From Spirochaetia bacterium (GTDB taxonomy: Bacteria > Spirochaetota > Spirochaetia > SZUA-6 > Bin103), in NCBI GenBank assembly GCA_965198005.1, contig CBDAOI010000004.1:1664001-1728000 (forward strand): a stretch of 64,000 nucleotides of DNA, written 5' to 3'. The notes under the pieces are model-generated. The model saw only the letters and a list, made by a program, of their open reading frames with translations, was not told the DNA's origin and did no database searches. The translations under genes and the position numbers were made by a program. Positions 6,869-62,845 of the stretch are shown here, one piece after another. Each line of letters begins with the position of its first letter. Position 1 is the stretch's first letter.

Positions 6869-7733
6869 TAGGGGGCGCAGTTTCTTTGTCAGGCTGTGGC
6901 GGGAACGGCCGGTGGGTGCTGTCGGCGGCATCATCGTACTGATCTTGATTCTGGTCAGTATCTTGGCCGATTTCCTTGCGCCTTATCGCCCGCGGGAGGT
7001 GAACCTGCCAGACATCTTGCAAGGTCCGTCGGCCACTCATCTCCTGGGTGCCGACCACCTGGGGCGAGACGTCCTGAGCCGCCTCATTCACGGGGCGCGC
7101 ATCTCGATATTCGTCGGGTTTGCCGCGACCACCCTCAACGTTGTCGTGGCCGGGCTGATCGGCGGCACGTCGGGCTTCCTGGGCGGCAAGCTGGACCTGG
7201 TGGTGCAGCGCTTCGTCGATGCCTGGATGTCGTTCCCGGGACTACTGCTGCTGTTGACGGTCATGTCGATAACGGGGCGGGGGATTCTACAGCTCATCGT
7301 GGTGCTGGGCATCGTCGGCGGCATCCCCGCCTCACGCGTGGTGCGAGGGGCTGTGCTCGGGGTCAAGGAGAATACCTACTTTCAAGCCGCGGAGGTGATC
7401 GGCTGCTCGACAGGGAAGACGCTGGTTCGCCACGTGCTGCCCAACATCGCGGCTCCGATAATCGTCATCTTCAGCATCAACATCGGGGCGGTGATCATCA
7501 CCGAGGCGTCTCTGAGCTTCCTCGGTTTCGGTCTGCCGCTCCGGATTCCCAGTTGGGGCGGCATGCTCAGTCGGGAAGGGCGCCAGTACATGGAGATGGC
7601 GCCGCGGCTGGCTCTGTGGCCCGGCCTCTGCCTGACGATCGTCGTCTACAGTCTGAACATGTTCGGCGACGCGGTGCGCGACCTGCTCGACCCGCGGCTG
7701 CGCGGTGGTACCGGTCGTTACGGCGGCAGGTAA
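6861..7733 (+). CDS. ABC transporter permease, DppC/OppC-like
   Basis: HLLGADHLGRDVLSRLIHGAR...RHVLPN...EASLSFLGFG...GDAVRDLLDPRLR. Confidence 0.95.
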   Translation: MNDRGRSFFVRLWRERPVGAVGGIIVLILILVSILADFLAPYRPREVNLPDILQGPSATHLLGADHLGRDVLSRLIHGARISIFVGFAATTLNVVVAGLIGGTSGFLGGKLDLVVQRFVDAWMSFPGLLLLLTVMSITGRGILQLIVVLGIVGGIPASRVVRGAVLGVKENTYFQAAEVIGCSTGKTLVRHVLPNIAAPIIVIFSINIGAVIITEASLSFLGFGLPLRIPSWGGMLSREGRQYMEMAPRLALWPGLCLTIVVYSLNMFGDAVRDLLDPRLRGGTGRYGGR

Positions 7734-7789
7734 GGTGACAGGTAAGCTGACAGGTAAGCAGGAGGAGAGTTGCTCGATCGTGCGGAGGA

Positions 7790-8962
7790 CTAGTGCGCCT
7801 TGGGCGGGTGGCGGGCGAGGGCGGCCTCGTCCGGCTCGGTGCCCCAGCCCGGGGTGTCGGGCAGGTGCAGGTGGCCCTGGCGGATGTCCGGCGCCACGGT
7901 GAACAACTGGTCGTCCCACGGTCCCCGGTCGACGTCGGTCTCCATGATGCGCAGGTTGGGCACCGCCGCGCACAAGTGGGCGCTCATCATCGTCGCCAAG
8001 TGTCCGTAGTAGTTGTGCGGGGCGACGTTGATCTGGTGGGCGTCGGCGATCGCCGCGATCTTCATTGATTGCCAGACGCCGTTCCAGACCGCGTCGATGA
8101 TCGCCACGTCCATCGCCTGCAGCCGGAAGTAGGGGAGGAACGCGGTCGGGGTGATCAGCGACTCGCACGAGCTGATGGTATGCGGGCTGCCGCGCCGCAC
8201 GTCGGCCAGCGCTTCCGGGTGCGGGGTGTCGATCTCGAACCAGAAGACGTCCAGATCGGCCAGCGCCCGCAGGATCCGCAGGTACCCCTCCGGTTTCGCG
8301 TTGTAGTTGAGGTCCACCAGGATGTCCAGGTCGGGCCCGGCGCCGTCGCGAAACGCCTCCAGATGGGCGCGGAGCTGGCGGATGACGTGCCGCTCCACGT
8401 TCTGGTCGGGTTGAAACGGGTGGCCGAATCCCGGTGCCCAGCCGGTCACCGTCTCCCCGCGGTAGTCGAAGATGTTGGTCTTGAGCGCGGTGAAGCCCGA
8501 TTCCCGTACCTCGGCGCCGAGCGCCCGGATGCCGTCCAGGCCGGTCACCGTGGTGCGGTGCAGGCCGGGATGGGCGATGCGCCAAGTGCCGCAGTGCGAC
8601 CAGTACACGCGGATCCGGTCGCGTATCTTGCCGCCGAGCAGCTCGCAGCACGGCACGCCGAGCAGCTTGGCCTTGGCGTCGAGCAGGGCGTTCTCGAGCG
8701 CCCCGATTCCCATCGCCATCACGCCCGACATCGACTGGCGCGCCCGCGCCTGCAACTTGGCGAACACCCGTTCCGTGTCCTGCACGCGCTCGCCGGCCAC
8801 GAACGGGGTCAGCCGCTGCACCACGCTGGTGACGCCGGCGGCGCCCTGATGCTCGTCGTACTCGCTCCAGCCGACGAGGCCGTCCTCGGTGGTGAGCTTG
8901 ACGAAGTGATAGTTGCGCCAGCCGGCGTCGCAGTGGCGCGTCTCGATGCTGCGGACCTTCAT
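7790..8962 (-). CDS. Mandelate racemase/muconate lactonizing (enolase superfamily; galactonate dehydratase-like) protein
   Basis: MKVRSIET...VKLTTEDGLVGWSE...LLDAKAKLLGVP..ELLGG...GFTALKT...APHN...LPDTPGWG. Confidence 0.9.
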   Translation of the reverse strand: MKVRSIETRHCDAGWRNYHFVKLTTEDGLVGWSEYDEHQGAAGVTSVVQRLTPFVAGERVQDTERVFAKLQARARQSMSGVMAMGIGALENALLDAKAKLLGVPCCELLGGKIRDRIRVYWSHCGTWRIAHPGLHRTTVTGLDGIRALGAEVRESGFTALKTNIFDYRGETVTGWAPGFGHPFQPDQNVERHVIRQLRAHLEAFRDGAGPDLDILVDLNYNAKPEGYLRILRALADLDVFWFEIDTPHPEALADVRRGSPHTISSCESLITPTAFLPYFRLQAMDVAIIDAVWNGVWQSMKIAAIADAHQINVAPHNYYGHLATMMSAHLCAAVPNLRIMETDVDRGPWDDQLFTVAPDIRQGHLHLPDTPGWGTEPDEAALARHPPKAH

Positions 8963-9059
8963 GCCGCAGAACGCCGCTTCGCTGTGGTTTGCATGACCAG
9001 ACAGTACGTGGTCAGAATAGGGTGTGGCAAGCGCGCACCGACCGCCGCGACCGACGGGA

Positions 9060-9523
9060 GATGGAGCAGGTCCAGAACGTGCCACACGATTGCTGGACCG
9101 CCCGATCATCACGCCCGAGTTCGACCCGTCGATCGGGCGCAACATCCAGGGGCCGTCGATCATCCGGGGCCGCGTCTGTTCAACCCGAATATGCGCCACA
9201 GCGCGCTGCTGGTGCGCCACGAGACGCTGTACGTGTTCTGGACGCAGGTCGGGCACGCCCCGGAGCGGATCCTGCTGAGCACGATCGACCTTGCGGGCGA
9301 CTGGCGCGCGTGGCGGGAGTCGGCGCCGGTGGAGGTTCTGCGCCCCGAGCGAGTCTGGGAGGGCGCCGCGGCGCCGGTGCGGTCGTCGGTGCGCAGCACC
9401 GCGTATGGGATCGTCAACCAGCTTCGCGATCCGGCCATCCTGGAGGATGAAGGCCGCACCTACCTGCTGTACGCCGTCGCCGGCGAGAGCGGCATCGCGC
9501 TGGCGGAGCTGCGGTTTGAGTGA
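9060..9523 (+). pseudogene. Internally deleted beta-propeller/glycoside-hydrolase-like hypothetical gene
   Basis: N-terminal piece LLDRPIITPEFDPSIGRNIQGPSII joins out of frame to C-terminal piece NMRHSALL...NQLRDPAILEDEGRTYLLYAVAGESGIA. Confidence 0.55.
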
Positions 9524-10780: not shown

Positions 10781-11000
10781 GTCGGCGGGCGGAGGTGGAC
10801 GCATTCGCAGCATCCGGAGCCGGTGTTGCCTGATTGCGCTACAATAGGTGGTTCCCAATCGCGCGTTACGACGATAAGATGTGTATTGGCATGTACCTGA
10901 GTTACGTGGCACCGGATGGCGGGCTGTGCACGCATGCTGCTTCTTGCGTATCCCACGGAATCCTCGCTATACCGCGAATTGAGACTGACGGAGAACCTGA

Positions 11001-11870
11001 TTGACTTTCCATTTGCAAGCCATTTGTAGCGGTCGCTCGGGATTCGAGCGGCTTAGCCAACTCGCCAAGTCGACCGAGCATCTTTTCGCCGACCATCTTG
11101 AACTCAACATTTCGCAAGTAAGCTCGTTCGACGGCAACATGGCCGCTCCGCTGGGAGTTGTACTGGCGCATGTTACGGATGACTTCAACTTTGTTGAGAT
11201 TGTTGCCATCCCCTCAGGTATCAAGCGAGTACTCCGAAAGAACCGATTTCTTACGCACTTTCGCTATAGTCCGATGGATGACATTCATGGTACTACGATG
11301 CCCTATCGTCGCCTTCGACTGACTGATGAAGGAGCATTCGAGGACTACATCCAACTGCAACTCAAAGATAAGGCCATTCCCGAGATGTCCGCAAAAGCGA
11401 GCCAAAGATTCAAGCAGAAGGTATTTGAAGTATACCAAAATGCTGTTTCTCACTCGGAATCTGACGTTGGCGTGTTCGTTTGCGGCCACATGTTCCCGCG
11501 CGAAAATCGTCTCGACTTTACCATCGCTGATGGCGGTATGGGTATTCGTGATGCTGTGCGTGGTTACTTCAAAACTGATAGAATCAGTTCGATTGCAGCA
11601 CTAAAATGGGCTCTGGAGCAGAATCACACCACAAAACGTGGTAGTCATCCTGGTGGCCTTGGTCTTGGGTTTCTTCGAGCATTTTCCGCTCTGAACGAAG
11701 GAAAGATTCGGATTGTCTCGCGGTTCGCGTTTTATGAATTTGACTGTGGACAAGAAGCATTCCACAAAATGCAGTATGACTTCCCCGGAACCGCCGTAAC
11801 GGTTCAGATCAACACTGCCGATACAGGGAAGTATATTCTACCCGCAGAGATCACTACGGAGGAACCATGA
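11001..11870 (+). CDS. GHKL/histidine-kinase-like ATPase (anti-sigma-factor kinase-like) with N-terminal extension
   Basis: N-box EVYQNAVSHS, G1 FTIADGGMGI, G2 GGLGL, G3 PGTAV; no H-box or TM segments; lower GC than flanks. Confidence 0.85.
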   Translation: MTFHLQAICSGRSGFERLSQLAKSTEHLFADHLELNISQVSSFDGNMAAPLGVVLAHVTDDFNFVEIVAIPSGIKRVLRKNRFLTHFRYSPMDDIHGTTMPYRRLRLTDEGAFEDYIQLQLKDKAIPEMSAKASQRFKQKVFEVYQNAVSHSESDVGVFVCGHMFPRENRLDFTIADGGMGIRDAVRGYFKTDRISSIAALKWALEQNHTTKRGSHPGGLGLGFLRAFSALNEGKIRIVSRFAFYEFDCGQEAFHKMQYDFPGTAVTVQINTADTGKYILPAEITTEEP

Positions 11871-12235
11871 CCGAACCGATTCTCGTGCGAGTGTACGACA
11901 TCGTAGGGGGCCCGCTCGGCGTGTCAACCGAGGATGGTCAGCGCTTGCATGACAAGATTGCGCCACTCCTCAAGGCCGGTACGCCGGTCGTTCTTTCATT
12001 CGAACGCATCGAGACGATGATATCGGCATTTCTCAACGCAGCCGTTGGGCAACTCTACGGTGAGTTGTCTGAAGATAGTGTCGATCACCTGCTGTCTGTC
12101 AGCGATATGGCTCTCGACGATAGCCACGTGTACCAACACGTTGTCACGAACGCGAAGGCTTACTTCAAAGACCCTGGCAAGTTTGAAAGGGCATGGAGAG
12201 AAGAATTGGGCTCCGAAATGGATGATGAAGAATAA
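11867..12235 (+). CDS. STAS-like domain protein (DUF4325-type)
   Basis: 122 aa; VSTEDGQRLHDKI...VVLSFERIETMISAFLNAAVGQL; ATGA overlap with the upstream ATPase. Confidence 0.8.
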   Translation: MTEPILVRVYDIVGGPLGVSTEDGQRLHDKIAPLLKAGTPVVLSFERIETMISAFLNAAVGQLYGELSEDSVDHLLSVSDMALDDSHVYQHVVTNAKAYFKDPGKFERAWREELGSEMDDEE

Positions 12236-12776
12236 AGCACACAACTTGTCTGGGTATTCATTCCAAAGGGGCGAGTCGTTGCTGTTCGACACTAACGTGT
12301 GGCTCTATCTCTATCCCGCACCGGCGGCGAGCGTCTATCGGCATGCAGCAAGGTACAGCAGCGGGTTAAAATCAATGCTTCAGGCAGGCGCGCAGATGGT
12401 TGTCGACGCAGTCGTGCTTAGTGAGTACTTGAATCGTTATTGTCGTATCGAGTGGAGCGCAAACCATAGGGCAATGTATCGAGACTTCAAGGCATTCCGT
12501 ATGTCAGCTGATTTCGCGCCGGCTGGGCAAGCAGCGGCTGCCTATGCAAATCAGATACTAAAGCTTGGCAAGCGTTACGATCACCCGTTTTCGCTAATCG
12601 ATCTCATGCGAATACTGACCGATTTCGAATCTGGATTGTGCGATTTCAACGATGGTTTGCTAGTGGAGACCTGCCGCCATCATGGATGGAAAATCGTGAC
12701 GAACGATTCTGATTTTGTCTCTGGGGGTATCGAAGTCTTGACCACGAACCCCAAGCTCTTGAAAGCGTGTCCATAG
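12222..12776 (+). CDS. PIN-domain ribonuclease
   Basis: LLFDTNVWL, VLSEYLN, DFNDGLL, IVTNDSDF give the complete acidic PIN active-site pattern; start overlaps the STAS gene end. Confidence 0.85.
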   Translation: MMKNKAHNLSGYSFQRGESLLFDTNVWLYLYPAPAASVYRHAARYSSGLKSMLQAGAQMVVDAVVLSEYLNRYCRIEWSANHRAMYRDFKAFRMSADFAPAGQAAAAYANQILKLGKRYDHPFSLIDLMRILTDFESGLCDFNDGLLVETCRHHGWKIVTNDSDFVSGGIEVLTTNPKLLKACP

Positions 12777-12897
12777 ACCGTATGGGTATGCGGAGAAGTG
12801 ACGCGGAGAGATCTGAGGGGAAGCAGGCTCTCCGGTTGGTGTACGACACGCCGCTGCCGCCGACCCGCTCGCCACGGTGGCTGCGGCCGCCGGCAGC

Positions 12898-14112
12898 TCA
12901 GTCGGTGGGCAACGCCGCGCCGTACAGAAAGTCGACCAGGTTGATATGCCGAATGCCGTCGAGGGGTCCCGGCGCGACGGGGTCCAGCGAGAGCATCACC
13001 TTGGCGTGGGCGTCGCCGGTGCCGAGCAGGGCGGACTTCTCCCGCTCGAGTGTCTCCGGGGACTCGATCAGATAACTCACCTGCACGTACACGCGGCCCT
13101 GCGCGCCTTCGGCGACGAAGTCGACCTCGTGGGCGCCGGCAACCCCCACCGCGACCCGGTAACCCCGGCGCAGCAACTCGTGGAACACCAGATTCTCCAG
13201 GTCGCCGGCAATCCACCGTTCCTGCGTGCCCAGCAACCCATGACGCAGGCCGAGGTCGCCCAGGTAGTACTTGCTGCCGATCTGCAGATGGCGCCTGCCG
13301 CGCAGGTCGAACCGGTCGACTTTGTCCAGCACGAACGCTTCGCACAGATACGAGAGGTAGTTGAGGACCGTATCGGCCGTGCCGCGTCGCTGATGGGACC
13401 GCATGAAGTCGGAGATTCTCTTGCCCGACGTGAGATTGCCGACGTTGTCCATCGCGAAGCGGACGATCGACTCGAACGTGTCCGGATCGCGAATGGATCG
13501 CCGCTGCACGACGTCCCGCAGCGCGATCGTGCTGTAGACGTCGCCCAGCATCTGCCGCACGAGGTCCGGAGAAAGGTCGGTGTGGAGCAGCCCCGGCAGG
13601 CCGCCCAACGTTCGGTAGCGCGCGAACAGCTCGGCTCTCGACGGCTTCCCCGGTTGGGTCGCCGCGAAGAGGTCCGCGAACTCGCGCAGCGAAAGCGGCA
13701 GCACGCGAAGCGTGAGGTAGCGCCCGGCAAGCCGCGTGGCCAGCTCCCCGGCGAGCAGCGTCGAGTTCGAGCCGGAGACCACGACGCGGGTCTCGTTGCG
13801 GTTCTGGAGCGAGGCCACCGCACGTTCCCAGTCGTCAATCTGTTGGATCTCGTCGACGATGACACAGGTCGGGCCGCCGGCCCCCTCCCGCCGTACATGG
13901 GCCACGAGATCTCCCGCTCCGCGGATGAATTCGAAGGAGAGATCCTCCATGTCGACGTACACGACGCGGGTTCGACTACGCAGACGCGCGGCGAGTTGGC
14001 GCAGGAGCACGCTCTTGCCGACGCGCCGAAGGCCGACCACCGCTACGGCCACCGGCGCCTCTACGTACCGCGCCAGTTTGTCCAGGTAGAGAGCACGTTC
14101 GATCTCGAACAT
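12898..14112 (-). CDS. ATP-binding protein, AAA_14 + DUF4143 family
   Basis: GLRRVGKS, VDEIQ, SGSNS, LAGRY, GGLPG, KYYLGDLGLR, LENLVFHELLRRG, EVDFVA. Confidence 0.92.
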   Translation of the reverse strand: MFEIERALYLDKLARYVEAPVAVAVVGLRRVGKSVLLRQLAARLRSRTRVVYVDMEDLSFEFIRGAGDLVAHVRREGAGGPTCVIVDEIQQIDDWERAVASLQNRNETRVVVSGSNSTLLAGELATRLAGRYLTLRVLPLSLREFADLFAATQPGKPSRAELFARYRTLGGLPGLLHTDLSPDLVRQMLGDVYSTIALRDVVQRRSIRDPDTFESIVRFAMDNVGNLTSGKRISDFMRSHQRRGTADTVLNYLSYLCEAFVLDKVDRFDLRGRRHLQIGSKYYLGDLGLRHGLLGTQERWIAGDLENLVFHELLRRGYRVAVGVAGAHEVDFVAEGAQGRVYVQVSYLIESPETLEREKSALLGTGDAHAKVMLSLDPVAPGPLDGIRHINLVDFLYGAALPTD

Positions 14113-14198
14113 GTTCCAATTATAGGGCGCGCGGCATAGGCGCGGCACGCGGTGGCCGTCGGATTGCCGCACGCGGCCGGGAACGGATAGAGTGAGGC

Positions 14199-15727: not shown

Positions 15728-17542
15728 ATGAGTAGCGGAATGACCAAAACGTGCCTCGCGGTGCTGTTCGGTCTCGCCTTGGCCGTGACCGGCCTCTGGG
15801 CGGCTGCCGCCGAAGAGGAGCCGGCCGCGGCGATGGAGAAGGAGATGGTGCTCGACCCCACCACCGGAGAGATGGTGAGCGCGCCGGAGTACGGCGGGAC
15901 CATCACCAGTCTGTTCCATCCCGGCTGGCAGACCGAGCATGCCGACATGTGGCACTACCGCAGTGTCATCCACCCCACCAAGATCGTCTTGGAGAGAATG
16001 GGTGGCGGTGACTGGGGACTGCCCAGAGACGAATTCGCCTTCGCCGGTGCCATCCCGAATCTACCTCAATACACCGGCAAGCTGGCCGAGAGCTGGGAAC
16101 AGCCCGACGCCACGACGATTGTTCTCAACATCCGCAAGGGGGTGAAGTGGCACGACAAGGAACCGATGAACGGCCGCGAGCTGGTCGCCGACGACGTCGT
16201 GTTCAACTTCAGTCGCAATCTGGGGCTGGGCGAGTTTGCCGCGGATGGACCGAGCCCGGTGATCAGCGTGCTGGGGACGCTGCCGGTCGAATCGATCACG
16301 GCAACCGACAGCCATACGGTCGTGATCACGTTGCAGCAACCGATGCTCGCCGCGCTGTACCACATCATCGCCGACATCTACGGCAATCAGTACCCGCCCG
16401 AAGTGATCAGGCAGGACGGCGACGCCAAGGATTGGAACAAGCTGGTAGGCACCGGGCCGTTCATGTTGACCGACAGGGTGGAAGACGTTGCCCTGACCTA
16501 TACCAAGAACCCGGACTATTGGGGCTTTGACGAGAAGTTTCCGGACAACCGCCTGCCCTATGTCGACGAGTTCAGGGGCGTGATCATGCCGGACGAATCG
16601 ACGCGCCTGGCGGCGCTGCGCTCGGGCCAGCTCGACGTGCTGGGTGGTCCCGCCGCGTATGCGCTCTCACCCGGCCCCTCGACCGAGGGCCTGGCGCGCA
16701 CCAACGCGGAGCTCAAACAGTTTGCGTACCAGAATCGCAGCCAGAATTCCGCCGCCTTCAACCTGAAAGCGCCGCCCTTCGACGACGTTCGGGTGCGTAG
16801 GGCGATCCAGATGGCCCTCGACCTGGAGACGGTAGCGGCCACCTACTTCAAGGGCTATGCAGATCCCACACCTCGCGGCGTGGTCGGCATCGCCAACACC
16901 GGGTACGCGTTCCCGGTTGCGGAGTGGTCCGACGAACTCAAGGGTTACTACAGCTATGACCCGGCAGGAGCAGAGGCGCTCCTCGATGAGGCGGGATATC
17001 CGCGCGGCGCCGACGGCGTCAGATTCCAGACCATATTCAACGCCCATCCCAGCCCAGCGGCAACCGATCAGGGCTTTGTCGCGATAATGATCCAGTTTTG
17101 GGATGCGATCGGCGTCGACGTGGACCTCTTGGTCGCGGATGGCGCGGCCTTCGGCCCGATGATCCAGAATGCCGACTACGAAGGGATACTCTGGTTCATT
17201 ACCGGCTGGAACAGGCCGCTTCCGGTGACCACCATCGGCTGGCAGGCCACGGGTGCGTACAACAACGCCACCGGACACAGCGTGGAGGAGTATGACGCGA
17301 TGATCGCCGCCGTGGGCGCGGCGACGACGGTCGAGGAGGAACGGCAGTTGATCCTGGAGGCGGATCGGTACCTGATCGAGAATCACCTGTACCTGTGGGG
17401 TCCGATCATGCCGCAGGTTGCGGTGACGCAGCCGTGGATCGTCGGCTACAACGGCGAAAACAATCTGGGCGACGTCGACAGCTACACGATCTTTGCTCGC
17501 CTGTGGATCGACCACCAGATGAAGGAGTCGATGGGGCACTAG
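15728..17542 (+). CDS. ABC transporter substrate-binding protein, family 5
   Basis: Signal peptide, PEYGGT, LAESWE, GTGPF, KNPDYW, PFDDVRVRRA. Confidence 0.95.
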   Translation: MSSGMTKTCLAVLFGLALAVTGLWAAAAEEEPAAAMEKEMVLDPTTGEMVSAPEYGGTITSLFHPGWQTEHADMWHYRSVIHPTKIVLERMGGGDWGLPRDEFAFAGAIPNLPQYTGKLAESWEQPDATTIVLNIRKGVKWHDKEPMNGRELVADDVVFNFSRNLGLGEFAADGPSPVISVLGTLPVESITATDSHTVVITLQQPMLAALYHIIADIYGNQYPPEVIRQDGDAKDWNKLVGTGPFMLTDRVEDVALTYTKNPDYWGFDEKFPDNRLPYVDEFRGVIMPDESTRLAALRSGQLDVLGGPAAYALSPGPSTEGLARTNAELKQFAYQNRSQNSAAFNLKAPPFDDVRVRRAIQMALDLETVAATYFKGYADPTPRGVVGIANTGYAFPVAEWSDELKGYYSYDPAGAEALLDEAGYPRGADGVRFQTIFNAHPSPAATDQGFVAIMIQFWDAIGVDVDLLVADGAAFGPMIQNADYEGILWFITGWNRPLPVTTIGWQATGAYNNATGHSVEEYDAMIAAVGAATTVEEERQLILEADRYLIENHLYLWGPIMPQVAVTQPWIVGYNGENNLGDVDSYTIFARLWIDHQMKESMGH

Positions 17543-17562
17543 TAGAGCTGCTTGAGATCCTG

Positions 17563-53134: not shown

Positions 53135-53166
53135 TTTTTTTTGCCGGATACTCCGGCTTTTTTTTT
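53135..53166 (+). terminator. Intrinsic terminator-like hairpin, antisense to the SBP leader
   Basis: T8-gccgga-tac-tccggc-T9. Confidence 0.6.
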
Positions 53167-54126: not shown

Positions 54127-54330
54127 GGGGGACTCCTCACCATTAAGCAAGCGCGCCGCGAGCTGATTTTCAGCAAATCTCGGCGAGCGGCTGTCAGGGG
54201 AACAGAGTGTCATAAGCGTTGACGTGTTATAGGTCACTCAAGCCCTCCGCAGGTGAGGCACAGCCATACCCAGATGTAGTCGCGATGTCGCGATTGACTG
54301 CATCCCACCCAATCATAACCTCCGCCCCCG
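54127..54330 (-). repeat. ~190-bp conserved non-coding element, copy B
   Basis: Reverse complement of 3292-3485 with few differences. Confidence 0.9.
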
Positions 54331-54779
54331 AGGACGTCAACCACGAATCGGCCCAGCAATCCTCGGTGAACGGCAGTCGATGGCCTGAAGAGACAGTCTG
54401 GGGGGCCCACCATTTGCCAACCCCCGCCGCGAAAGGATTCCGGGGGGGGCAAGGGTAGGACGCGCCGGTTGCGTTGCCCCTAACCGGTGGCAGCGCTGAG
54501 TAGTGTTTTCAGCCATCTTTTGCATCCGTTCAAACCTGAGACTCTTAGTATACCACCTCTGCGGCAACCAATCAACAGAAAAAAACAGGCGAATTGAAGG
54601 TTTCTTGAGATTTCTTTCGGGCAGCCGCGGCAGCCGAGAGCCCCTCGCGGCGCCGACTCGGGCGCATCGCCCCTCCGGAGCCGTCATTCGCCGGCGATGT
54701 GGCCGTCCGCAGGCCGTTCACCGTCCACGTCGGCCTCACAGCGGCCCGCTGAGGGCCTTCCAGCCCCTCGGGGGTAGCC

Positions 54780-56703
54780 TGGGGTACGAGCGCCAGGCTA
54801 ACTGGCATATGACAGAGGGTGAAAGTCCCTCGGAACGAAGGAGCAGCCAATCCACGTTTCTCCGCGAGCCGTGCGTTGGCACCTGCGAGGGTGCAGGCGA
54901 AGCGTCGGCAGCGGTGCGTGCGGGCAGAGTTATGGAGCGCCGCAAAATACGACATCTGGAGTGCCGAGACTCTGTACTCGGTCGAAGGCAACACCGGTCG
55001 AGCCAGTATGGTGAGGATCGACCGGGCTCCACGGCGTCGAAGAACTCAGGCACGTGCGTACGTCATATACCGGGACCTGGGAGGTCTTCGGGTCGTCCCG
55101 GCGAGTCGTCGCCGGGACCGCGGAGGGAAGGCGTGAGGCTGGACCAAAGATGAACGACCCGAAGGAGTCGGACATGGGCATAGTAGCGGCGAAGCCGGCG
55201 AACAAGGGAGCGCAAGCGACTGCGGAGACGGTGGAGCGAAGGCCCATGACCAACGGGAATTCGCAAGGTCAAAGCACGGGCCGGACGCAGAGTCGGGCAA
55301 CCGTGACACAGGCGGCCGAGCGGATACGGCAATTCGTAAAGAGAGAACCGCAGGAGAAACTCACTGCGCTGCTGCACCACGTGACGCCGGAAGCGCTGCG
55401 GGTGGCCTATTACGCGCTGAAGCGTGAAGCGGCCCCGGGGGTGGACGGGATGACGTGGCGGGAGTACGAGACGGGGTTGGAAGTGCGCTTGCACGACCTG
55501 CACCGGCGAGTACACACAGGAGCGTACCGAGCGACCCCGGTACGGCGGGTCAACATCGACAAGCCGGACGGAGGCACACGACCGCTGGGGGTGGCCGCGC
55601 TGGAGGACAAGATCGTCCAGAAGGCCGTGGTGGATGTGATCCTGACACCGATCTATGAGGAGGAATTTCTCGGGATCAGCTATGGGTTTCGACCGGGGCG
55701 CGGGGCACACGATGCGTTGGACGCACTGGCCTACGCCATCGAACGGCGCGAAGTGAACTGGATATTGGACGCGGACATTCGCGCCTACTTCGACACGATC
55801 TCGCGGGACTGGTTGATCAGATTCCTGGAGCATCGGATTGGAGATCGGCGGGTGCTGCGGCTGATAAAGAAGTGGCTGCGCGCTGGGGTACTGGAAGAAG
55901 GCCGACAGATCGACGCGGGGCGGGGTACAGCGCAAGGGTCGGTGATTTCACCGATGCTCGCGAATATATACTTGCACTACGTGTTGGACCTGTGGGTCAC
56001 CAAGAAGTGGCGGCCGCAGGAGGCGCGCGGAGACATGATCATAGTGCGCTACGCAGATGACTATGTCGCCGGGTTCGAGCATCGTGACGATGCGGAACGC
56101 TTCCTGCGGGAACTGAAGGAGCGATTCAGAGGCTTCGAGCTGGAACTGAACGCCGACAAGACCCGACTCCTCGAGTTTGGACGGTATGCCGAAAGGAACC
56201 GCCGAGCACGTGGGGAAGGGCGACCGGAGACGTTCGACTTTCTGGGTTTCACGCATTATTGCAGGAAGGACAGGAAAGGACGCTTCGGGCTGGGGCGGAA
56301 GCCAATTCGGAAGCGGATGAATCGTACGCTGAAGAGGATCAAGATCGAGCTCCGCAGACGAATGCATGATGACGTGATGGAAACCGGGCGCTGGCTGGGA
56401 CGGGTACTGCGCGGATGGCTCAACTACTACGCGGTACCCACCAGCTACCGCTATCTGCACCGATTCGTGTGGCGTCTGCGAGGAATCTGGGTAAAGATTC
56501 TACGCCGGAGGTCCCAGAAGGACCGATTCTCCTGGGCTTGGATGCTGGCGATCAGCATCAAGCTGTGGCCCCAACCCCGAATCGTACACTCATGGCCGGA
56601 CCGGCGATTTGCCGTCAACCACCGAAGGTAGGAGCCGGATGGTTTAACGACCACGTCCGGATCTGTGCGGGGGGCGCCGGGTAACCGGCGTTCCTACCGC
56701 GCC
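54780..56703 (+). mobile_element. Group II intron with RT/maturase ORF (bacterial class E-like); ends approximate
   Basis: 5' gcgccagg-ctaa-ctggc, gagggtgaaagtccctc; domain V gagccggatggtttaacgaccacgtccggatc; domain VI ggggggcgccgggtaaccggcgttcctaccgc. Confidence 0.88.
55150..56631 (+). CDS. ltrA: Group II intron reverse transcriptase/maturase (no endonuclease domain)
   Basis: AAPGVDG, KPDGGTRPLG, SYGFRPGRGAHDAL, DADI..YFD, GTAQGSVISP, RYADD, FDFLGF, LRGWLNYY. Confidence 0.95.
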   Translation: MNDPKESDMGIVAAKPANKGAQATAETVERRPMTNGNSQGQSTGRTQSRATVTQAAERIRQFVKREPQEKLTALLHHVTPEALRVAYYALKREAAPGVDGMTWREYETGLEVRLHDLHRRVHTGAYRATPVRRVNIDKPDGGTRPLGVAALEDKIVQKAVVDVILTPIYEEEFLGISYGFRPGRGAHDALDALAYAIERREVNWILDADIRAYFDTISRDWLIRFLEHRIGDRRVLRLIKKWLRAGVLEEGRQIDAGRGTAQGSVISPMLANIYLHYVLDLWVTKKWRPQEARGDMIIVRYADDYVAGFEHRDDAERFLRELKERFRGFELELNADKTRLLEFGRYAERNRRARGEGRPETFDFLGFTHYCRKDRKGRFGLGRKPIRKRMNRTLKRIKIELRRRMHDDVMETGRWLGRVLRGWLNYYAVPTSYRYLHRFVWRLRGIWVKILRRRSQKDRFSWAWMLAISIKLWPQPRIVHSWPDRRFAVNHRR

Positions 56704-56872
56704 CCCCTGCAACACCCGTCGAAGCCGTTTCCCACCACCGCTGACACCGCTGACACGCCGCGCGGTCCGCCACCCGGCTCCCGTGTGCCACCTCGAACAT
56801 CAATCCGAGACCGGCACTGATCAGCGCTTGCAGGTCAGGAACGACGTGAGGTGCGGGCTGCAGAGCCCCCCT

Positions 56873-57150: not shown

Positions 57151-58070
57151 CACGCAGCATCGCGCACGCCACCGCGAGCAACCGGTCCGCGACCGTACGC
57201 AGCGCCCGGCCATGGCGCTGCCCGCGCGCGCGCAGCGCCGCATACCGCTCCCGACTCACCGGATCGTGCTGGATCGCCACCCGCGCCCAGTGATACATCG
57301 CGTTGCTCAGCCGCTGGTTGCAGGCACGGCGCATGCTCACCTGGCAACTCTTCCCCGACCGCTTGGTCACCGGCGCGACTCCGGTCAGAATCCGCAACCT
57401 GTGGTAGTCTCGCTCAGCCAGCAACTGTGAGGCCTCCGCGAACAGCGTGGCGAGCACGATCCGACCAACACCGGGCATCGAACGCAGGATGACGGCGTCA
57501 CGCTGCTCTTCTGGTTCACCCGAGTCGTCGGCGGCCACAATCTCGGCCAGCAGTTCGTCGAGCCGGCTGCCGCAGGATGCGCAGCACACTGGCAGCATCA
57601 TGGCGCCGGATGCGGTTGCGCTTCAGGATGGCCGCGACCGACGCCTTCCGGACCCGCGCTGCCTCCGCCGGCGTCGAAGCCTTCTCCCACAACTCCGGAA
57701 CCCAGCCCGCGCCGAGGTCACCGCCCAGCTCGATCATCTGCGGGTAGTAGCGGCGCAGTTGCTCGCGCATGCGATTGATCAGCCCGTTGCGTTCCTCCTG
57801 CAACTCGGCAGTCAGGCGCGACCATTCCCGCAACTCGATCACCGGCGGTGCCTGCACCTGCAACTGACGAAAGCTGCGTCGGTCGGTGCGCAGCGAGTCT
57901 GCCAACACCCGCGCGTCGCGCCGGTCATCCTTGGCGCCGGCCACCGTAAACCGGTCACGAAATCGATCCAGCTGCTTGGGATTGATCGCGTACACCTGCA
58001 CCTCGCGCTCCAGCAGCATCTCGACCACCGCGCCATGCGGCACCTCGATCCCCGCGTGCACGCGCTCCGG
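57150..58070 (-). mobile_element. IS110-family transposase remnant
   Basis: GIEVPHG...AINPKQ...GAKDDRRDARVLA (DEDD domain), LRSMPGVG...GVAPVTKRSGKS...RRACN; 5' truncated and frameshifted near 57570-57600. Confidence 0.88.
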
Positions 58071-58130
58071 GTGCCCGCCCCCCGAGATTGTTCTGTAGCT
58101 CGGCTGCCACGATGTCGTTCCGCCCCTGTA

Positions 58131-58178
58131 CTGGTGCTCTGATGCTCTGGTGCTCCTGGCACCTTGGCACCCTGGCAC
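58131..58178. repeat. Six tandem 8-bp units
   Basis: ctggtgct ctgatgct ctggtgct cctggcac cttggcac cctggcac. Confidence 0.75.
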
Positions 58179-58440
58179 AAGCTCCTCACTGGGTATCCAT
58201 CGCGGCACTCCTGCCGGGGCACACGTCCCCCCCGGGCGCTCTCCGGCGCGGGGGGCTCAAGGTTGCTCCCGGCAGGTTGCCTCGCCCGCCTGGGATTCTA
58301 GCAGTCCCGGACGAACTTTCTACTCTCTAAAGGGTACAGGGGGGTAGATGAGGATAGGACGGCTGCGTTGCCGCTGGGCACCGGCGGCGCCGCTGCGGCC
58401 GGCGTCGCGAAGTTCCCGGAAACAGGCTACTCTGAGCGGC

Positions 58441-59328
58441 ATGCACTACCGCCCACTTGGTAACACCGGCCTGTCGGTCAGCGCCGTCGGTCTCGGCGGC
58501 GTACCGCTGTCCATACCCGAGGCGCGCCCCGACCAGGCAACTGCGATCAAGGTCGTCCACCATGCCGTCGACCAGGGTGTGACCTTTATCGACACGGCCG
58601 ACAGCTACGGTCGCGGCGAATCGGACATGGGCCACAACGAGCGCCTGTTTCGCGCCGCCCTGGCGGAGCTGCCTGCAGACGTGCGCACGCAGGTGGTGGT
58701 TGCCACCAAGGCCGGCTTCACGCGCCCCGGCGGCGCCTGGGTTCCCAACGGCCGCCCGGAGTACCTGCGGCGGCAGTGCGAGGCCTCCCTGCGCAACCTC
58801 GACGTCGAGCGGCTCGACCTGCTGCAGCACCACCGGCCCGATCCCGATGTGCCAATCGCCGAGAGCATCGGCGCATTTGCCCGCCTGCGCGAAGAAGGCA
58901 AGGTGCGCTTTATCGGCGTCAGCGAGTACTCGGTCGCGCAACTCGACGAGGCCCAGTCCGTGACCGCGATCGCCAGCACCCAGAATCAGTACTCGCTGGC
59001 GCATCGGCAACCCGAGCAGGACGGCACCCTGGCCGCCGCCGGGGAGCGGGGACTGGCATTCATCCCCTGGAGCCCCCTGGGCGGCATTGCGGCCCCGCCG
59101 CATGGGGCGCGTGATCTTGCTCGACGGCACCCCGCGGTTGCGCGCCTGGCCGAGCACCATGGCGTGAGCCCGCAGCGGCTGGTGGTCGCCTGGCTGCTCA
59201 GTAAGGGGCCGCACGTCCTGGTAATCGTCGGCGCCAGCCGGGCCGCCACCATCGAGGACTCGGCACGCGCTGCCGACCTTGAGCTGGATGCCAGCGACCT
59301 CGCCCAGATCGACGCGGCCACCGCCTGA
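58441..59328 (+). CDS. Aldo/keto reductase
   Basis: MHYRPLGNTGLSVSAVGLG, IDTADSYG, ATK, SLRNL, GKVRFIGVS, PWSPLG. Confidence 0.92.
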   Translation: MHYRPLGNTGLSVSAVGLGGVPLSIPEARPDQATAIKVVHHAVDQGVTFIDTADSYGRGESDMGHNERLFRAALAELPADVRTQVVVATKAGFTRPGGAWVPNGRPEYLRRQCEASLRNLDVERLDLLQHHRPDPDVPIAESIGAFARLREEGKVRFIGVSEYSVAQLDEAQSVTAIASTQNQYSLAHRQPEQDGTLAAAGERGLAFIPWSPLGGIAAPPHGARDLARRHPAVARLAEHHGVSPQRLVVAWLLSKGPHVLVIVGASRAATIEDSARAADLELDASDLAQIDAATA

Positions 59329-59485
59329 CCGAGGTCGCGCCACCACTCGCGGCTGTGAGATTCGGAACGCTCGAGGTTACCGAGCTTCCCGACGATGCCC
59401 CGGTGCTGGTCGGCCAGATGGTCATGGACGCACTCCATTGCTCGCGCGCCGGGCAAACGATAGAGTCAGTGCCCAGGCTACGGTA

Positions 59486-61243
59486 GTGAGCACGCCCCCC
59501 GCCCACCCGCGCATTCCCTACGGCGAGGCCGACTTCAGGCGCATCCGCTGGAACCGCTGGCTGTACGTCGACAAGACCCGCTTCCTGCGGCGGCTGGAGG
59601 ACGAGCGCTACGCCTTTCTGATCCGCCCGCGCCGCTTCGGCAAGTCGCTGTGGGTCTCCCTGCTTGAGAACTACTACGACCGCTTCTGGGCCGACGGCTT
59701 CGAGGCCACCTTCGCCGGCACCGACATCGGGCAGGACCCGACCGGGGAACAGCGCCGCTACGTCACCCTGCGCTTCGACTTTTCAACCGTCAACGACAAG
59801 CTCGAAACGCTGGAGCGGGAGTTCGAGACCTACTGTTTCATAGAGCTGCGGGGGACGCTGCGGCGGCACCCCGACGTGTTTCCCGACGCCGCGGTGCGGG
59901 ACATCCTCGCGCCGCCCTCCATCGCCACCAAGCTTTCCGAGCTGTTTCGTTACGCCGGCGACCATGACATCCCCCTGTACGTGCTGATCGACGAGTACGA
60001 CAACTTCGCCAACACCGTGCTGGCGTACCACGGCGCGGAGGCGTACCACTCCTTCACCCACGGTGGCGGCTTCTACCGCAACTTCTTTGCCACCCTGAAG
60101 TCCGGGGCGGGGCGCACCGGCGGCGGTCTGGAGCGCCTGTTCATCACCGGCGTGTCGCCGATCACGATGGACGACGTGACCAGCGGCTTCAACATCGGCA
60201 AGAACATCAGCCTGCACCCGGACTTCAACGAGATGGTCGGCTTCACCGAATCGGAGGTGCGGCGCTTGGTCGAGACCTACCGGGACCTGGGCGTGTTCAA
60301 TCAGGACGTCGAGACCGCCATGGGCATCATGGGCCAGTGGTACAACGGCTATCGGTTCGCCAAGGCGGCCGAGACCGATCTGTACAACACCGACATGGTG
60401 CTCTACTACCTGGACAACTCGATTCCCAACCGAGACGTACCGGAATACCTGATCGACACCAACGTGCGCATCGACTACGGCAAGCTGCGCCACCTGCTAG
60501 TGACCGGGCGGCAGCTCAACGGCAACTTCGACCTGCTGCGCGACATCATCGGCGAGGAGCAGGTGGACACCCGCATCCAGCCCGGCTTTCCGCTGAAGGA
60601 CCTCACCAAGCCGGAGAACTTTCTCTCCCTGCTGCACTACTTCGGGCTGTTGAGCATCCGCGACGTGGTGGAGCGGGTGCCGCGGCTGGCGATCCCGAAC
60701 CAGACCGTGAAGCGGTTGATGTACGGCTTCCTGCGCGATGGCTACCGCGACGTGGGGGTGTTTTCAGTCAATCTGTTCCGGTTCGAGCAGTTGATGATGG
60801 GGATGGCCAACCGGGGGGAATGGCAGCCGGCGTTCGAGTTTCTGAGCGAGGCGATCGCGCAGCAGACGGGGATTCGCGACTACATCAGCGGGGAGAAGGT
60901 AATCCAGGGATTCCTGGCCGCCTATCTGAGCGTGAGCGACTACTACGTGTTCCGCTCGGAGGCGGAGTTGGGCAAGGGACACGCGGACATCTGCCTGGAA
61001 CCGCTGGTGGCCCGCTATCCGCACCTGCAGCGCGGTTATCTGATCGAGCTGAAATACCTGAAGCGCAGCGAGTCGGTGGACGAGGCCGGGGTGGCGGCGG
61101 CGGCCGCAGAGGCGACGGCGCAGCTCGAGCGGTACCTGGCGGACGAGCGGCTGGCGCGGCAGTTTCCCGCGGTGCGCTTCATCGGCCTGATCGTGGTGTT
61201 CCACGGCTGGGAGATGGTGTTCTGCGATGCCGTGCGGCAGTGA
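59486..61243 (+). CDS. AAA-ATPase-like + PD-(D/E)XK nuclease (PF09820/PF08011-type) protein
   Basis: IPYGEADF, YVDKT, RPRRFGKSL, LIDEYDNF, FITGVSP, WYNGY, C-terminal SEAELGKGHADI...LIELKY. Confidence 0.93.
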   Translation: MSTPPAHPRIPYGEADFRRIRWNRWLYVDKTRFLRRLEDERYAFLIRPRRFGKSLWVSLLENYYDRFWADGFEATFAGTDIGQDPTGEQRRYVTLRFDFSTVNDKLETLEREFETYCFIELRGTLRRHPDVFPDAAVRDILAPPSIATKLSELFRYAGDHDIPLYVLIDEYDNFANTVLAYHGAEAYHSFTHGGGFYRNFFATLKSGAGRTGGGLERLFITGVSPITMDDVTSGFNIGKNISLHPDFNEMVGFTESEVRRLVETYRDLGVFNQDVETAMGIMGQWYNGYRFAKAAETDLYNTDMVLYYLDNSIPNRDVPEYLIDTNVRIDYGKLRHLLVTGRQLNGNFDLLRDIIGEEQVDTRIQPGFPLKDLTKPENFLSLLHYFGLLSIRDVVERVPRLAIPNQTVKRLMYGFLRDGYRDVGVFSVNLFRFEQLMMGMANRGEWQPAFEFLSEAIAQQTGIRDYISGEKVIQGFLAAYLSVSDYYVFRSEAELGKGHADICLEPLVARYPHLQRGYLIELKYLKRSESVDEAGVAAAAAEATAQLERYLADERLARQFPAVRFIGLIVVFHGWEMVFCDAVRQ

Positions 61244-61294
61244 CCGCGCGCCCTGAGTTGCACGGGCACAGAGGACGAGATCCGGACGACGGCT

Positions 61295-61462
61295 TCAGGC
61301 GCCGCCGGCACCCAGACGACCGCCGCCGCCCCGGAGCCGCGGGTCGAGCAGATCGCGCACCGCGTCGCCGAACATGTTCAGGCTGTAGACCACGATGGTC
61401 AGGCACAGGCCGGGCCAGAGCGCCAGCCACGGTCCCTGCTGCATGTACTGGCGGCCTTCGCG
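61295..61462 (-). pseudogene. Orphan dppC 3' fragment
   Basis: REGRQYMQQGPWLALWPGLCLTIVVYSLNMFGDAVRDLLDPRLRGGGGRLG, very close to the end of 49387-50280. Confidence 0.9.
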
Positions 61463-61851
61463 GAGTCCGGGGTAGGTGCGCCCAATACCGCCGCCGCCTC
61501 GTATATTCCTCGACTGGCGATGAGGCGCGCCACCGCCCGCGGCTGCGATCCGGCCAGTGAGACCAGGAAGCGATAGATATCGGGATAGGATCGATCCCAG
61601 CAGAACTCCGCGTACCAGCGCCGCACGGTCGCAGGTTCCGTCAATCCCGGGAATGGTTTGAGGAGCTCGGCCGGGTCTATTCCAAGGCCGGCACTCAAGT
61701 TCATGAGAGTGGCAACGTGCACGTTCCGGAAGTCATCATCGGCGGCAAACCAGAGAGAGACCGCCTGCCGGCTCACCCCCGCGGCCTTGGCCACATCCGA
61801 CTGTCGATATCCCTTCTTTGCCATCGCGGCCTTGAGTACGCTGAGATACAC
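61463..61851 (-). pseudogene. XRE/Cro-C1 HTH protein, C-terminally truncated
   Basis: KKGYRQSDVAKAAGVSRQAVSLWF; TTGACG-17-TATATC promoter just before the GTG; frame runs into the dppC shard. Confidence 0.7.
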
Positions 61852-62031
61852 AACGCCGATATAGCACCATTTGCGCGCTACGTCAAGTACACTTGTCACT
61901 CAGTCGCTCATGGTGCGTGCTCCTCTCCCGCACCACCCCGTAGCCACCGACGGGTAGAGCATGGGCTGCGGGCCGATTCGTTGGAGAGAAAAGGTTTTCC
62001 TGAAGAAACTTTGAGGATATACTTTTGGTGT

Positions 62032-62262
62032 ATGAAGACGATTACAGTCAAGGAACTGAAGGCCCATTGGGCCACCGTCGAGTCGGAGATCCGCTTGGGG
62101 GAGACGTTCGAGGTGCTCAACCGGGGCCGGGTTGCCGCCCACATCGTACCGCCGCGGCCGCGTCCCGTGGTCGCGTGGCCGGATCATCTGAGCACCGCTC
62201 TTCAGAACGACGACACCAAGGGGGCGGACATCGTCGCGTCGCACCGACACGAACGACGTTGA
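62032..62262 (+). CDS. Phd/YefM-type antitoxin
   Basis: MKTITVKELKAHW...GETFEVLNRGRVAAHIVP; overlapping TTG-ATC-TAT looks like the stub of a deleted PIN toxin. Confidence 0.75.
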   Translation: MKTITVKELKAHWATVESEIRLGETFEVLNRGRVAAHIVPPRPRPVVAWPDHLSTALQNDDTKGADIVASHRHERR

Positions 62263-62269
62263 TCTATCA

Positions 62270-62420
62270 CACCGATCGAGCGGAACGATTATCGTACGGC
62301 CGTCGACAAGATCGATTGTAAGTGACTCTTGGTCCACCCGGAGACCAGTCGCGCGAGCCTCGCGGACGTCAGCGACCGAAGAACTCATACCACCGCTCCA
62401 ATCGCCGCAACCTGGTTCAA
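62270..62420 (-). pseudogene. DUF4160/DUF2442-type gene pair remnant
   Basis: ...RWYEFFGR* overlapping MSSSVADVREARATGLRVDQESLTIDLVDGRTIIVPL, then truncated. Confidence 0.6.
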
Positions 62421-62506
62421 CTCCGTAGAAAAGCAACTCTGATTTGCCTGCTGGCGAATAGGCCAAAGTCCCTGGTTGCGCCGCTTATGCAACGGTTCGA
62501 GATTCC

Positions 62507-62845
62507 TCAACAGCGTCCACCGTCATCTTTTCCCCTGATGGCTTTCTTAACCGACCTCGCGCCACACGCCCCCACATGCCCCACACCACCCCTGAGCCTT
62601 GGGTCAAGCAGGTCTCTCACCGCGTCGCCGAACATGTTTAGACTGTAAACGATAATAGTAAGGGCAAGTCCAGGCCAGAAAGCCAACCATGGCGCCCTCT
62701 CCATGTACCGTCGCCCTTCCCTGCTCAGCAAAGCACCCCACTCGGCAATCTGAATTGGGAGACCGTATCCGAGGAAACTAAGAGAAGCAATACTCCGTAC
62801 TACGCCTCCGATGTTGATGCTGAATATGATGATTACGACAGGCAT
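62507..62845 (-). pseudogene. Orphan dppC 3' fragment
   Basis: MPVVIIIFSINIGG...ASLSFLGYG...GDAVRDLLDPRLRGG. Confidence 0.9.

Follow-up and report, generated by a model that had tools for sequence, protein, structure and literature searches.

The window analysed here, a stretch of 64,000 nucleotides (nt) from contig CBDAOI010000004.1 of a Spirochaetia bacterium (assembly GCA_965198005.1), belongs to a genome, G000, that is crowded with copies of an operon encoding a substrate-binding protein (SBP) and two permeases, DppB-like and DppC-like, of the Opp/Dpp/Nik family (PepT-type ATP-binding cassette, ABC, transporters). Besides intact operons the genome holds many orphan 3' ends of the last permease gene, dppC, and these look mainly like debris from the copying, recombination and erosion of operons; they do not resemble a dedicated docking site for cassettes. 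The birth-and-death of a hyper-expanded, recombining SBP-permease-permease operon family is the explanation that we favour, with a probability of about 0.55. A preliminary description of the window had noticed that dppC ends recur in it and had proposed that they act as an attachment site within a protein gene; the observation is real and statistically strong, while the attachment-site interpretation is mostly unsupported.

The census of the family carries the main finding. G000 is a metagenome-type assembly of 4.89 Mb in four contigs (C1 to C4, with the window on C4), with a guanine-plus-cytosine (GC) content of 0.66, 90% completeness and 3.3% contamination. It was searched with the window's own SBP, DppB and DppC proteins, and loci below 50% identity (dppB, dppC) or below 38% (SBP) were set aside as members of different subfamilies (12, 26 and 15 loci). 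The search retrieved 135 full dppC genes together with 107 fragments (67 C-terminal, 16 N-terminal, 24 internal or gapped), 141 full dppB genes with 74 fragments (36 C-terminal, 16 N-terminal, 20 internal, 2 other) and 124 full SBP genes with 74 fragments (27 C-terminal, 12 N-terminal, 30 internal, 5 other). At about 3.8 kb each, the intact operons are estimated to make up roughly a tenth of the genome. The preponderance of C-terminal over N-terminal dppC pieces (67 against 16, binomial p = 1e-8) bears out the dppC 3' block as a genome-wide hotspot of leftovers, and similarly holds among pieces of at least 60 amino acids (aa; 38 against 14, p = 0.001). The earlier statement that other parts of the operon are much less often left behind fails for the totals, with 74 fragments each of SBP and dppB and with SBP fragments and a frameshifted dppB in the window itself, but it stands per position, where the dppC 3' end is strongly over-represented. 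Thus, the start points of 3'-terminal remnants are distributed unevenly along the SBP-dppB-dppC operon and rise toward the dppC 3' end, from about 10 over all of SBP and about 14 over all of dppB to 7, 13 and 34 in the last three dppC bins of 70-80 aa (operon coordinates; starts at exactly 600 or 920 were excluded because chaining splits at some gene boundaries). The lengths of the C-terminal dppC orphans form a continuum from 19 to 248 aa (n = 67), 29 of the 67 being shorter than 60 aa. Samples of 400 kb from two relatives point in the same direction, with 4 C-terminal, 1 N-terminal and 2 other dppC fragments in G007 and 4, 0 and 1 in G001, or 8, 1 and 3 when pooled.

The last 60 codons of dppC are the most conserved part of the gene (85-88% nt identity across dozens of paralogs), and with so many orphans below 60 aa the 3' excess might be unreal, only the most conserved block remaining recognisable in old fragments. 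This is very improbable. When fragments of 30, 60 and 100 aa were taken from intact operon chains (50 of the 78 that lie outside the window) and searched again, the 30-aa fragments were recovered at 82-100% across most of dppC and dppB and the 60-aa fragments at no less than 84%, so that detectability, in a simulation that used undecayed fragments, does not account for the C-terminal excess; the excess among the pieces of at least 60 aa argues against the artefact as well.

The surroundings of the 67 C-terminal orphans indicate how many of them arose. In 25 of the 67, the nearest family feature in the 4 kb upstream is a remnant of SBP or dppB in colinear order, which indicates internal deletion of a single operon and thus decay in place. 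A same-strand dppC end comes first in 16, an opposite-strand feature in 2, and no family feature is found within this distance in 24. Of 82 intact operons, 23 have a dppC end on the same strand in the 4 kb upstream of SBP, and this equal rate indicates that the succession of a full gene and an orphan mirrors the tandem arrangement of the family. Orphans that retain upstream remnants have a median length of 107 aa and a broad, uniform spread, whereas those without upstream remnants of their own operon are shorter (medians of 50 and 69 aa), the class with a dppC end upstream being the shortest, as expected of older, more eroded pieces. The boundary of an open reading frame (ORF) follows within 150 nt more often in orphans (35 of 62) than in full genes (46 of 132; Fisher p = 0.005, with ORFs crudely called), and in 18 of the 62 orphans a downstream ORF in the same direction starts within this distance. 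Multi-copy sequence adjoins the 5' break in 18 of the 67 orphans, and the end of an IS110 element coincides with the break of one (C4:2391275/2391280).

Sequence exchange between the paralogs is extensive. A partner at 93% nt identity or more exists for 61 of the 135 full dppC genes, and for 21 of 34 pairs of this kind the tract of high identity comes to an end no more than 100 nt from the dppC stop codon. The 5' starts of the 34 tracts fall in dppB (17), in SBP (10), in dppC (2) and beyond the operon (5). Among the pairs of an orphan and its partner at 90% identity or more, homology is confined to the coding piece in about 28 of 40. Patchy tracts that halt at the limits of homology are a signature of gene conversion or mosaic homologous exchange, and the pattern of identities points to such exchange being frequent among the paralogs and stopping at the dppC end as the edge of their homology. 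The orphans are partners in this exchange too, and it may keep them recognisable. The same identities bear on whether the fragments could be retrocopies, 5'-truncated reverse transcripts of operon mRNA made by the abundant group II intron reverse transcriptase (RT). In favour are the 34 RT loci of the genome, a LINE-like bias of the fragments toward 5' truncation and the identity of 93-99% between many orphans and a full gene far away. Against it, homology to the closest partner mostly ends with the conserved coding block and not at a downstream transcript end, the spectrum of identities is the same in pairs of full genes, and 25 of the 67 orphans have upstream remnants, which leaves retrocopying highly improbable.

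Within the window, tblastn confirmed four intact OppC/DppC-type permease genes with the ends that had been described. Operon 1 (3933-7733, + strand) follows a leader repeat at 3261-3485 and consists of SBP at 3933-5717, a dppB-like gene at 5870-6868 and dppC-1 at 6861-7733, matching Pfam SBP_bac_5, BPD_transp_1(+_N) and BPD_transp_1 with OppC_N. Operon 2 (15728-19469, + strand; Pfam) has SBP at 15728-17542, a dppB-like gene at 17612-18571 and dppC-2 at 18582-19469. The third gene, dppC-3 (23726-24646, + strand; tblastn, Pfam), is a low-GC copy with 57% aa identity to dppC-1 and is part of the island described below. Operon 4 (49387-53284, - strand) comprises SBP at 51308-53284, a frameshifted dppB at 50277-50939 and 50960-51235, and dppC-4 at 49387-50250. 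The full dppC genes thus sit in operons with SBP_bac_5 and DppB-like partners, the island operon being ordered dppB-dppC-SBP. On the three full dppC genes other than dppC-4, BPD_transp_1 was found in all three and OppC_N in two, dppC-3 lacking it. The best NCBIfam match is Opp4C at 258 bits (cut-off 350), and DppC NF008160 reaches 167 bits (cut-off 483). No equivalog cut-off is reached, so that dppC is used here as a family label only (Opp/Dpp/Nik permease family) and the substrate is not assignable. No ABC ATPase domain was found among the 60 window ORFs scanned with Pfam, a search of the window and not of the rest of the genome.

All six orphan pieces were recovered at or near the positions first given for them, with some corrections. 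The piece at 19519-19563 (+ strand) is an internal fragment of 45 nt (aa about 250-266) that lies 50 nt past the dppC-2 stop and stops short of the gene end; it is identical at 43 of 45 positions to 19344-19388. The piece at 28424-28530 (+ strand; alignment) is a dppC-3 3' end with a 21-nt internal deletion, continuing into the SBP gene termed SBP-3b. The 36-kb piece (36000-36292, + strand) covers aa about 197-295, with 85% aa and 92.8% nt identity to dppC-2. The 47.6-kb piece (aa about 174-283, - strand; tblastn) extends from 47579 to 47917, further than first described. The remaining two lie on the - strand at 61295-61462 (about 41 aa plus a tail, with a 100% identical copy on contig C1) and at 62507-62854 (aa about 194-288, with a 99.7% identical copy on C1). 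In the three longest pieces the match is confined to the last 77-85 of the 184 BPD_transp_1 profile positions. The strand pattern was described correctly, all copies through 36292 lying on the + strand and all copies from 47579 on the - strand (tblastn). Given 242 dppC-bearing loci in 4.894 Mb, 3.2 would be expected in 64 kb; the window has ten, a copy density about three times the genome average. The 47.6-kb piece clearly stems from a dead operon that decayed where it stood: on its 5' side lie a truncated SDR gene (47803-48459) and then a C-terminal SBP fragment (48669-48935), giving the order SBP tail, SDR, dppC tail. A further SBP fragment lies at 1959-2492 (Pfam scan of ORF 2013-2912), and the window also contains a group II intron, pieces of IS110 and two AAA-ATPase_like genes, one with a PDDEXK_9 domain. 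Most pieces had been said to abut a switch in GC or gene content. A sharp GC switch is present at two of the six, those at 28.4 and 36.0 kb, and is missing at the other four, and sharp switches occur at 10.75, 12.75, 21.0, 26.75 and 40.25 kb with no dppC piece.

Between the copies lies a transport and catabolic island of low GC (19830-35999, + strand; GC 0.46-0.52 from 21.0 kb), 15-20 points under the genome GC. Its genes encode, by Pfam, PhyH, an epimerase, an RraA-like protein, DppB-3, DppC-3, SBP-3a, the SurE block, SBP-3b, an inositol-1-P synthase-like protein, a PfkB kinase, SIS, two GFO/IDH/MocA proteins and a ribulose-P 3-epimerase. All 15 island ORFs scanned are transport genes or sugar- or inositol-type enzymes, and none of them is a mobility or recombinase gene. 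The island is bracketed by direct repeats, 19208-19456 within dppC-2 and 36034-36279 within the 36-kb piece (250 nt, 92.8% identity, enclosing 16.5 kb of low-GC sequence), dppC-2 being intact; most paralog pairs are only 75-80% identical at the nt level. The 36-kb piece, from dppC codon about 197 onward, is joined directly to the stop codon of the island's last gene, leaving no spacer, and the 45-nt piece at 19519-19563 is probably filler copied from 19344-19388 at an illegitimate junction. This direct fusion and the filler copy give both island junctions an illegitimate look. The spacers between full genes and orphans, compared with the flanks of donor paralogs for run-off repair, are a patchwork of short repeats.

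A similar arrangement is nested within the island. The last 70 nt or so of dppC-3 plus SBP-3a (24574-26523, + strand) form a duplicate of 1.95 kb that is 99.4% identical to 28457-30407 (+ strand), a second copy at an offset of about 3,884 nt that carries SBP-3b and opens within the 28.4-kb orphan. Between the two copies lies the SurE block (26524-28423, + strand; Pfam SurE), of genus-type sequence with a GC of about 0.62-0.66, which is 82-86% identical to loci on contig C3 of G000 and in relatives. The dppC-3 tail is thus repeated around the SurE block, dppC-3 and the 28.4-kb piece forming direct repeats. Both direct-repeat layouts match the product expected of an insertion of the Campbell type or by homology-facilitated illegitimate joining, and the best reading of the island and of the SurE block is foreign or translocated DNA that landed in a decaying operon array.

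Comparison with relatives places some limits on how the island was gained. The ortholog of operon 2 in G005 is 91% identical, and its homology to the window ends at the stop codon of dppC and about 30 nt upstream of the SBP start, followed by a different downstream flank. This conforms to the expectation that breakpoints in relatives fall at the dppC end, but no empty site could be defined, synteny being too broken among the 20 relatives searched with 35900-41300 and the 40 searched with the island. The dppC-2 3' end is 92-94% identical to the G005 ortholog up to the stop, as is the rest of the gene, and the 36-kb piece is 87% identical to G005. The end of dppC-2 was therefore not replaced, and mosaic descent of the 3' part of the upstream full gene is not seen in this gene, the only one compared. 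G003 has a dppC-2-like fragment (aa 165-295) where G005 has the whole operon, in both after the same upstream sequence, termed X (36920-37352 in the window). In G003 the fragment follows orf36363 and X, an order permuted relative to the window: the 36-kb piece, orf36363 and X run A-B-X in the window and B-X-A in G003, and G005 has X before its SBP-2. The island operon (22736-30407) has the order dppB-dppC-SBP, compared with SBP-dppB-dppC in its closest homologs in G033 (C270) and G003 (C5:2914732-2918363). These circular permutations hint at tandem arrays or circular intermediates. At high identity the island is absent from the 40 relatives searched, the SurE block excepted; its permeases find their best match, at 76% nt identity, in G033, a genome of another family, and a search of the genome contigs with the ribulose-phosphate epimerase found no relative as donor.

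The arrangement was compared with contigs from four public short-read runs (X2, X4, X5 and X7, from three studies) over window 18000-37900. The junction between the island and the 36-kb piece (35999) is bridged in X2 (30364-36032), X5 (34230-36091) and X7 (35484-36091), and the junction between the SurE block and the 28.4-kb piece, at 28424-28463, is bridged in X4 (27987-28520) and X5 (27915-28520). Island depth equals flank depth in the four runs (X2: 26.8-28.3 in the island, 26.6 and 32.1 in the flanks). The duplicated segment stands at about twice the depth of the neighbouring island in X2 (51.7 and 54.8 against about 27) and in X7, and at 1.3-2.6 times in X4 and X5. At the left island junction (19470-19800) no bridging piece was found among the contig pieces listed. 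Bridged junctions and depth, with the same arrangement in all four runs, thus show that the right island junction, the SurE junction and the duplication are not assembly joins. A chimeric metagenome-assembled genome joined at a shared repeat, for which the metagenome-type assembly and the low GC of the island might have spoken, is exceedingly improbable in the face of these independent contigs and depths. Neither a deletion joint in register with the repeats (offset 16,823 nt) nor an empty site occurs among the joints listed for the four runs, in contigs that cannot show rare forms. Joints from about 18.3-19.0 kb to about 36.09 kb were considered as excision products; they skip 17,123-17,793 nt, out of register with 16,823, have sides of 22-25 nt and were read as contigs of other paralogs.

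In the birth-and-death explanation, operons would duplicate, exchange sequence by homologous recombination or gene conversion, take hits from mobile elements and then lose parts by successive deletions, the orphan dppC ends being the last remains of dead operons. The dppC end would be the edge of the dead unit, where an overshooting deletion would harm the closely abutting next gene, so that the last piece would be the slowest to be lost; the ORF-boundary comparison suggests that its tight fit against that gene is what lets the terminal dppC piece outlast the others. The dppC end would likewise be the edge of homology between paralogs, where exchange tracts would stop and run-off repair would have to be completed by an illegitimate join. 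Through conversion, intact paralogs may preserve the conserved block in recognisable form, and mobile elements may truncate some operons from their 5' side.

Several observations weigh against this explanation. The 5' edge of the operon shows no equal pile-up: the leader repeat of operon 1 has 26 copies in the genome, and 4 of the 26 copies of this one leader subtype lack a full SBP, against 67 of 202 dppC 3' ends that are orphaned. The asymmetry between the 3' and the 5' side is thus explained only partly. The protection of the edge and the maintenance by conversion are steps that we infer, and the ORF-proximity comparison uses ORFs called by a GC3 criterion and not real gene calls. Finally, the pair of dppC-2 and the 36-kb piece around a foreign island is exactly the outcome of a homology-anchored or Campbell-type event, and decay of a tandem duplicate is unsupported there.

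This last point leads to a tentative and, for the family as a whole, rather unlikely alternative, in which incoming DNA headed by dppB or dppC would recombine homologously at one end and be joined illegitimately at its far end in or after the resident dppC, or in which a circle with a partial dppC would integrate in Campbell style. An intact gene, its cargo and a displaced resident 3' piece would be left, resembling the C-terminal displacement of Rhs, CDI (contact-dependent growth inhibition) and T6SS (type VI secretion system) loci; excerpts of PMC5361080 provide a precedent for the mechanism. The two direct-repeat layouts, one with dppC-2 and the 36-kb piece and a right junction that is real in three runs, the other with dppC-3, the SurE block and the 28.4-kb piece, agree with such a gain, as do the frequent recombination among paralogs, the gradient of start points that climbs toward the 3' end (7, 13, 34) and the 16 orphans with a same-strand dppC end first upstream, the shortest class. 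In contrast, that tandem layout is no commoner in orphans (16/67) than in intact operons (23/82), and co-oriented 3' pieces after a full gene, the array expected of homology-facilitated illegitimate recombination (HFIR), therefore do not rise above background. The dppC-2 3' end is 93-94% identical to G005 like the rest of its gene, compared with 87% for the 36-kb piece, decay in place applies to 25 of the 67 orphans, no cassette shared by two different dppC sites was found, and the in-register joint is missing among the joints listed. The gain of cassettes through homology, as put forward in the preliminary description, is therefore supported by the two layouts and by the paralog exchange and not by the tandem layout or by a replaced dppC-2 end; homology-anchored capture may explain a minority of cases, notably the 16.5-kb low-GC island. 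It is also conceivable, though improbable, that the conserved permease genes of a family of about 135 copies serve as portable homology anchors, transport and catabolic blocks being captured by one homologous and one illegitimate join that displaces a dppC 3' piece each time, with the repertoire diversifying by the logic of C-terminal displacement. A multicopy gene for an AAA-ATPase with a PD-(D/E)XK nuclease domain, which is found inside several of the operons, might supply the breaks for such capture.

A true attachment site, used by a site-specific recombinase acting in trans on a core in the conserved block in the manner of an integron or a prophage, is barely credible. Direct repeats of a gene 3' end around an island mimic attL and attR, the target gene is intact, and the genome contains 46 tyrosine-recombinase (PF00589) matches that could act in trans, besides one serine-recombinase (PF00239) match. 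None of these 47 matches lies in the window, the nearest PF00589 matches being about 52 and 56 kb outside it, and Pfam found no recombinase family among the 60 window ORFs scanned, those of the island included. Genome-wide, 2 of the 67 orphans lie within 5 kb of a recombinase, compared with 3.1 +/- 1.7 for random points. The 5' breakpoints of the orphans differ within the window (aa about 174, 194, 197, 238, 250 and 262) and are scattered from aa 58 to 288 genome-wide, leaving no common core, and the island abuts its piece without a spacer. As regards the features of an integron (IntI, attI, attC), the window has no tyrosine recombinase and Rfam finds in it only the group II intron. The border integrase and the common core of an att-type island are likewise missing, and the window contains no tRNA gene that could serve as an anchor. 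The integron-like role first proposed for the dppC copies is thus not supported.

Other repeated elements occur in and around the window. The gene with AAA-ATPase_like (PF09820) and PDDEXK_9 domains lies at 59279-61243 (+ strand) and recurs at C1:44049, C3:827164, C4:441741, C4:1123946, C4:1303344, C4:1931007 and C4:2336194. The eight copies are independent, with 85-92% aa identity and a repeat unit that is essentially the ORF, and the gene has no NCBIfam match. Several copies are placed inside SBP-dppB-dppC operons, one between dppB and dppC (C4:1931007), one replacing dppB aa 38 to dppC aa 80 (C1:44049) and one after dppC aa 130 (C4:2336194). Three copies have a short convergent orphan dppC end 100-690 nt from their stop, and three are flanked by inverted GGGTCCG ... 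CGGACCC motifs. In the window the 61295-61462 orphan is convergent with the gene, about 50 nt from its stop. The gene may be a selfish or homing-like element that targets the multicopy operon. The second AAA-ATPase_like gene, at 1-1173, is 95.7% identical to C4:1662274-1663446 immediately upstream of the window and is hence a tandem duplicate. The group II intron (54127-56743; Rfam D1-D4 at 54822-55046, RT/maturase at 55054-56631) lies beside the leader repeat of operon 4. The pair of leader and intron is found again, with 98.5% identity, at C4:1651555 and C4:1380195, and operon leaders or their immediate surroundings may be homing sites of the intron.

The right end of the window, from 57566 to 64000 and beyond (C4:1721566-1740448), is the reverse complement of C1:1-18867 at 99.5-99.7% identity, reaching the very start of C1, and the 61.3- and 62.5-kb orphans fall inside this stretch of at least 19 kb. 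Two readings fit the stretch: a segmental duplication of recent date, or a repeat or strain variant that the assembly graph left unresolved. A block of low GC (0.50) at 10900-14172, with a HATPase_c-like ORF, a PIN-domain ORF and then an AAA_14/DUF4143 ATPase, has no dppC piece at its borders. The syntenic locus in G005 lacks the block and retains no more than the first 74 codons of the amidohydrolase. A repeat of about 330 nt (49032-49366) directly downstream of the operon 4 dppC stop has four further copies at 96-98% identity (C4:1926788, C4:1937845, C2:150722 and C2:769461), some of them downstream of other dppC ends. ORF 63102-63695, which matches Yae1_N weakly, contains a 12-nt tandem repeat in nine registers (63421-63564) that codes for QEGL/QEGR-type repeats.

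If the ordinary explanation by birth and death holds, the genome offers a clear and quantifiable bacterial case of this process, with one transporter operon amplified to about a tenth of the genome. Its hundreds of datable remnants and pervasive conversion would be useful for measuring deletion bias and the lengths of conversion tracts, and the system for studying how uncultured, apparently host-associated bacteria build substrate breadth. For annotators, short ORFs of permease C-termini in such genomes would be scars and not genes. If homology anchoring is true even for a subset, cassette capture that dispenses with an integrase would extend from toxin loci to the acquisition of metabolic genes. 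Full-text searches, which did not cover supplements, found no literature on orphan permease 3' ends or on this operon expansion; this is not proof of absence.

Among known systems, prophages and islands integrate into the 3' ends of tRNA or protein genes, as e14 and phage 21 do in icd of Escherichia coli. The low-GC island is similar in being flanked by direct repeats of a target 3' end, in the intact state of the target gene and in the pseudo-3' copy that remains. In contrast, elements of the e14 and phage 21 type have an att-adjacent integrase and a defined core, neither of which was found here. The likeness to integrons lies in the idea of serial co-oriented cassettes, whereas there is no IntI, no structured attI- or attC-like site and no promoter-proximal array logic in the present case. 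By analogy, C-terminal displacement through HFIR would be the nearest described mechanism. As described in excerpts of Kirchberger et al. 2017 (PMC5361080), C-terminal displacement and orphan arrays occur at effector-immunity loci of the Rhs, CDI and T6SS kinds, for which the proposed mechanism is homologous recombination in a conserved part plus illegitimate joining, with no integrase. The similarity lies in a full gene followed by co-oriented, 5'-truncated 3' pieces and in an integrase not being needed. The displaced pieces of those loci, however, are variable toxin tips with immunity genes and are selectively useful, whereas here a conserved permease end without evident function is left, in a tandem layout no more frequent than the background of operon arrays would give. 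Multigene families show pseudogene remnants as well as gene conversion. In the tandem lpl paralogs of Staphylococcus aureus the evolutionary unit runs from the 3' part of an ORF into the 5' part of the ORF that follows, according to an excerpt of PMC2568036. The present family is similar in its mosaic high-identity tracts bounded by the limits of homology and in units that do not match the ORFs, the island having dppB-dppC-SBP where G033 and G003 have SBP-dppB-dppC. It differs in scale, with about 135 intact and more than 250 fragmentary gene copies in 4.9 Mb, and in the marked excess of one terminal piece, and is best filed as an unusually large and informative case of paralog turnover with gene conversion.

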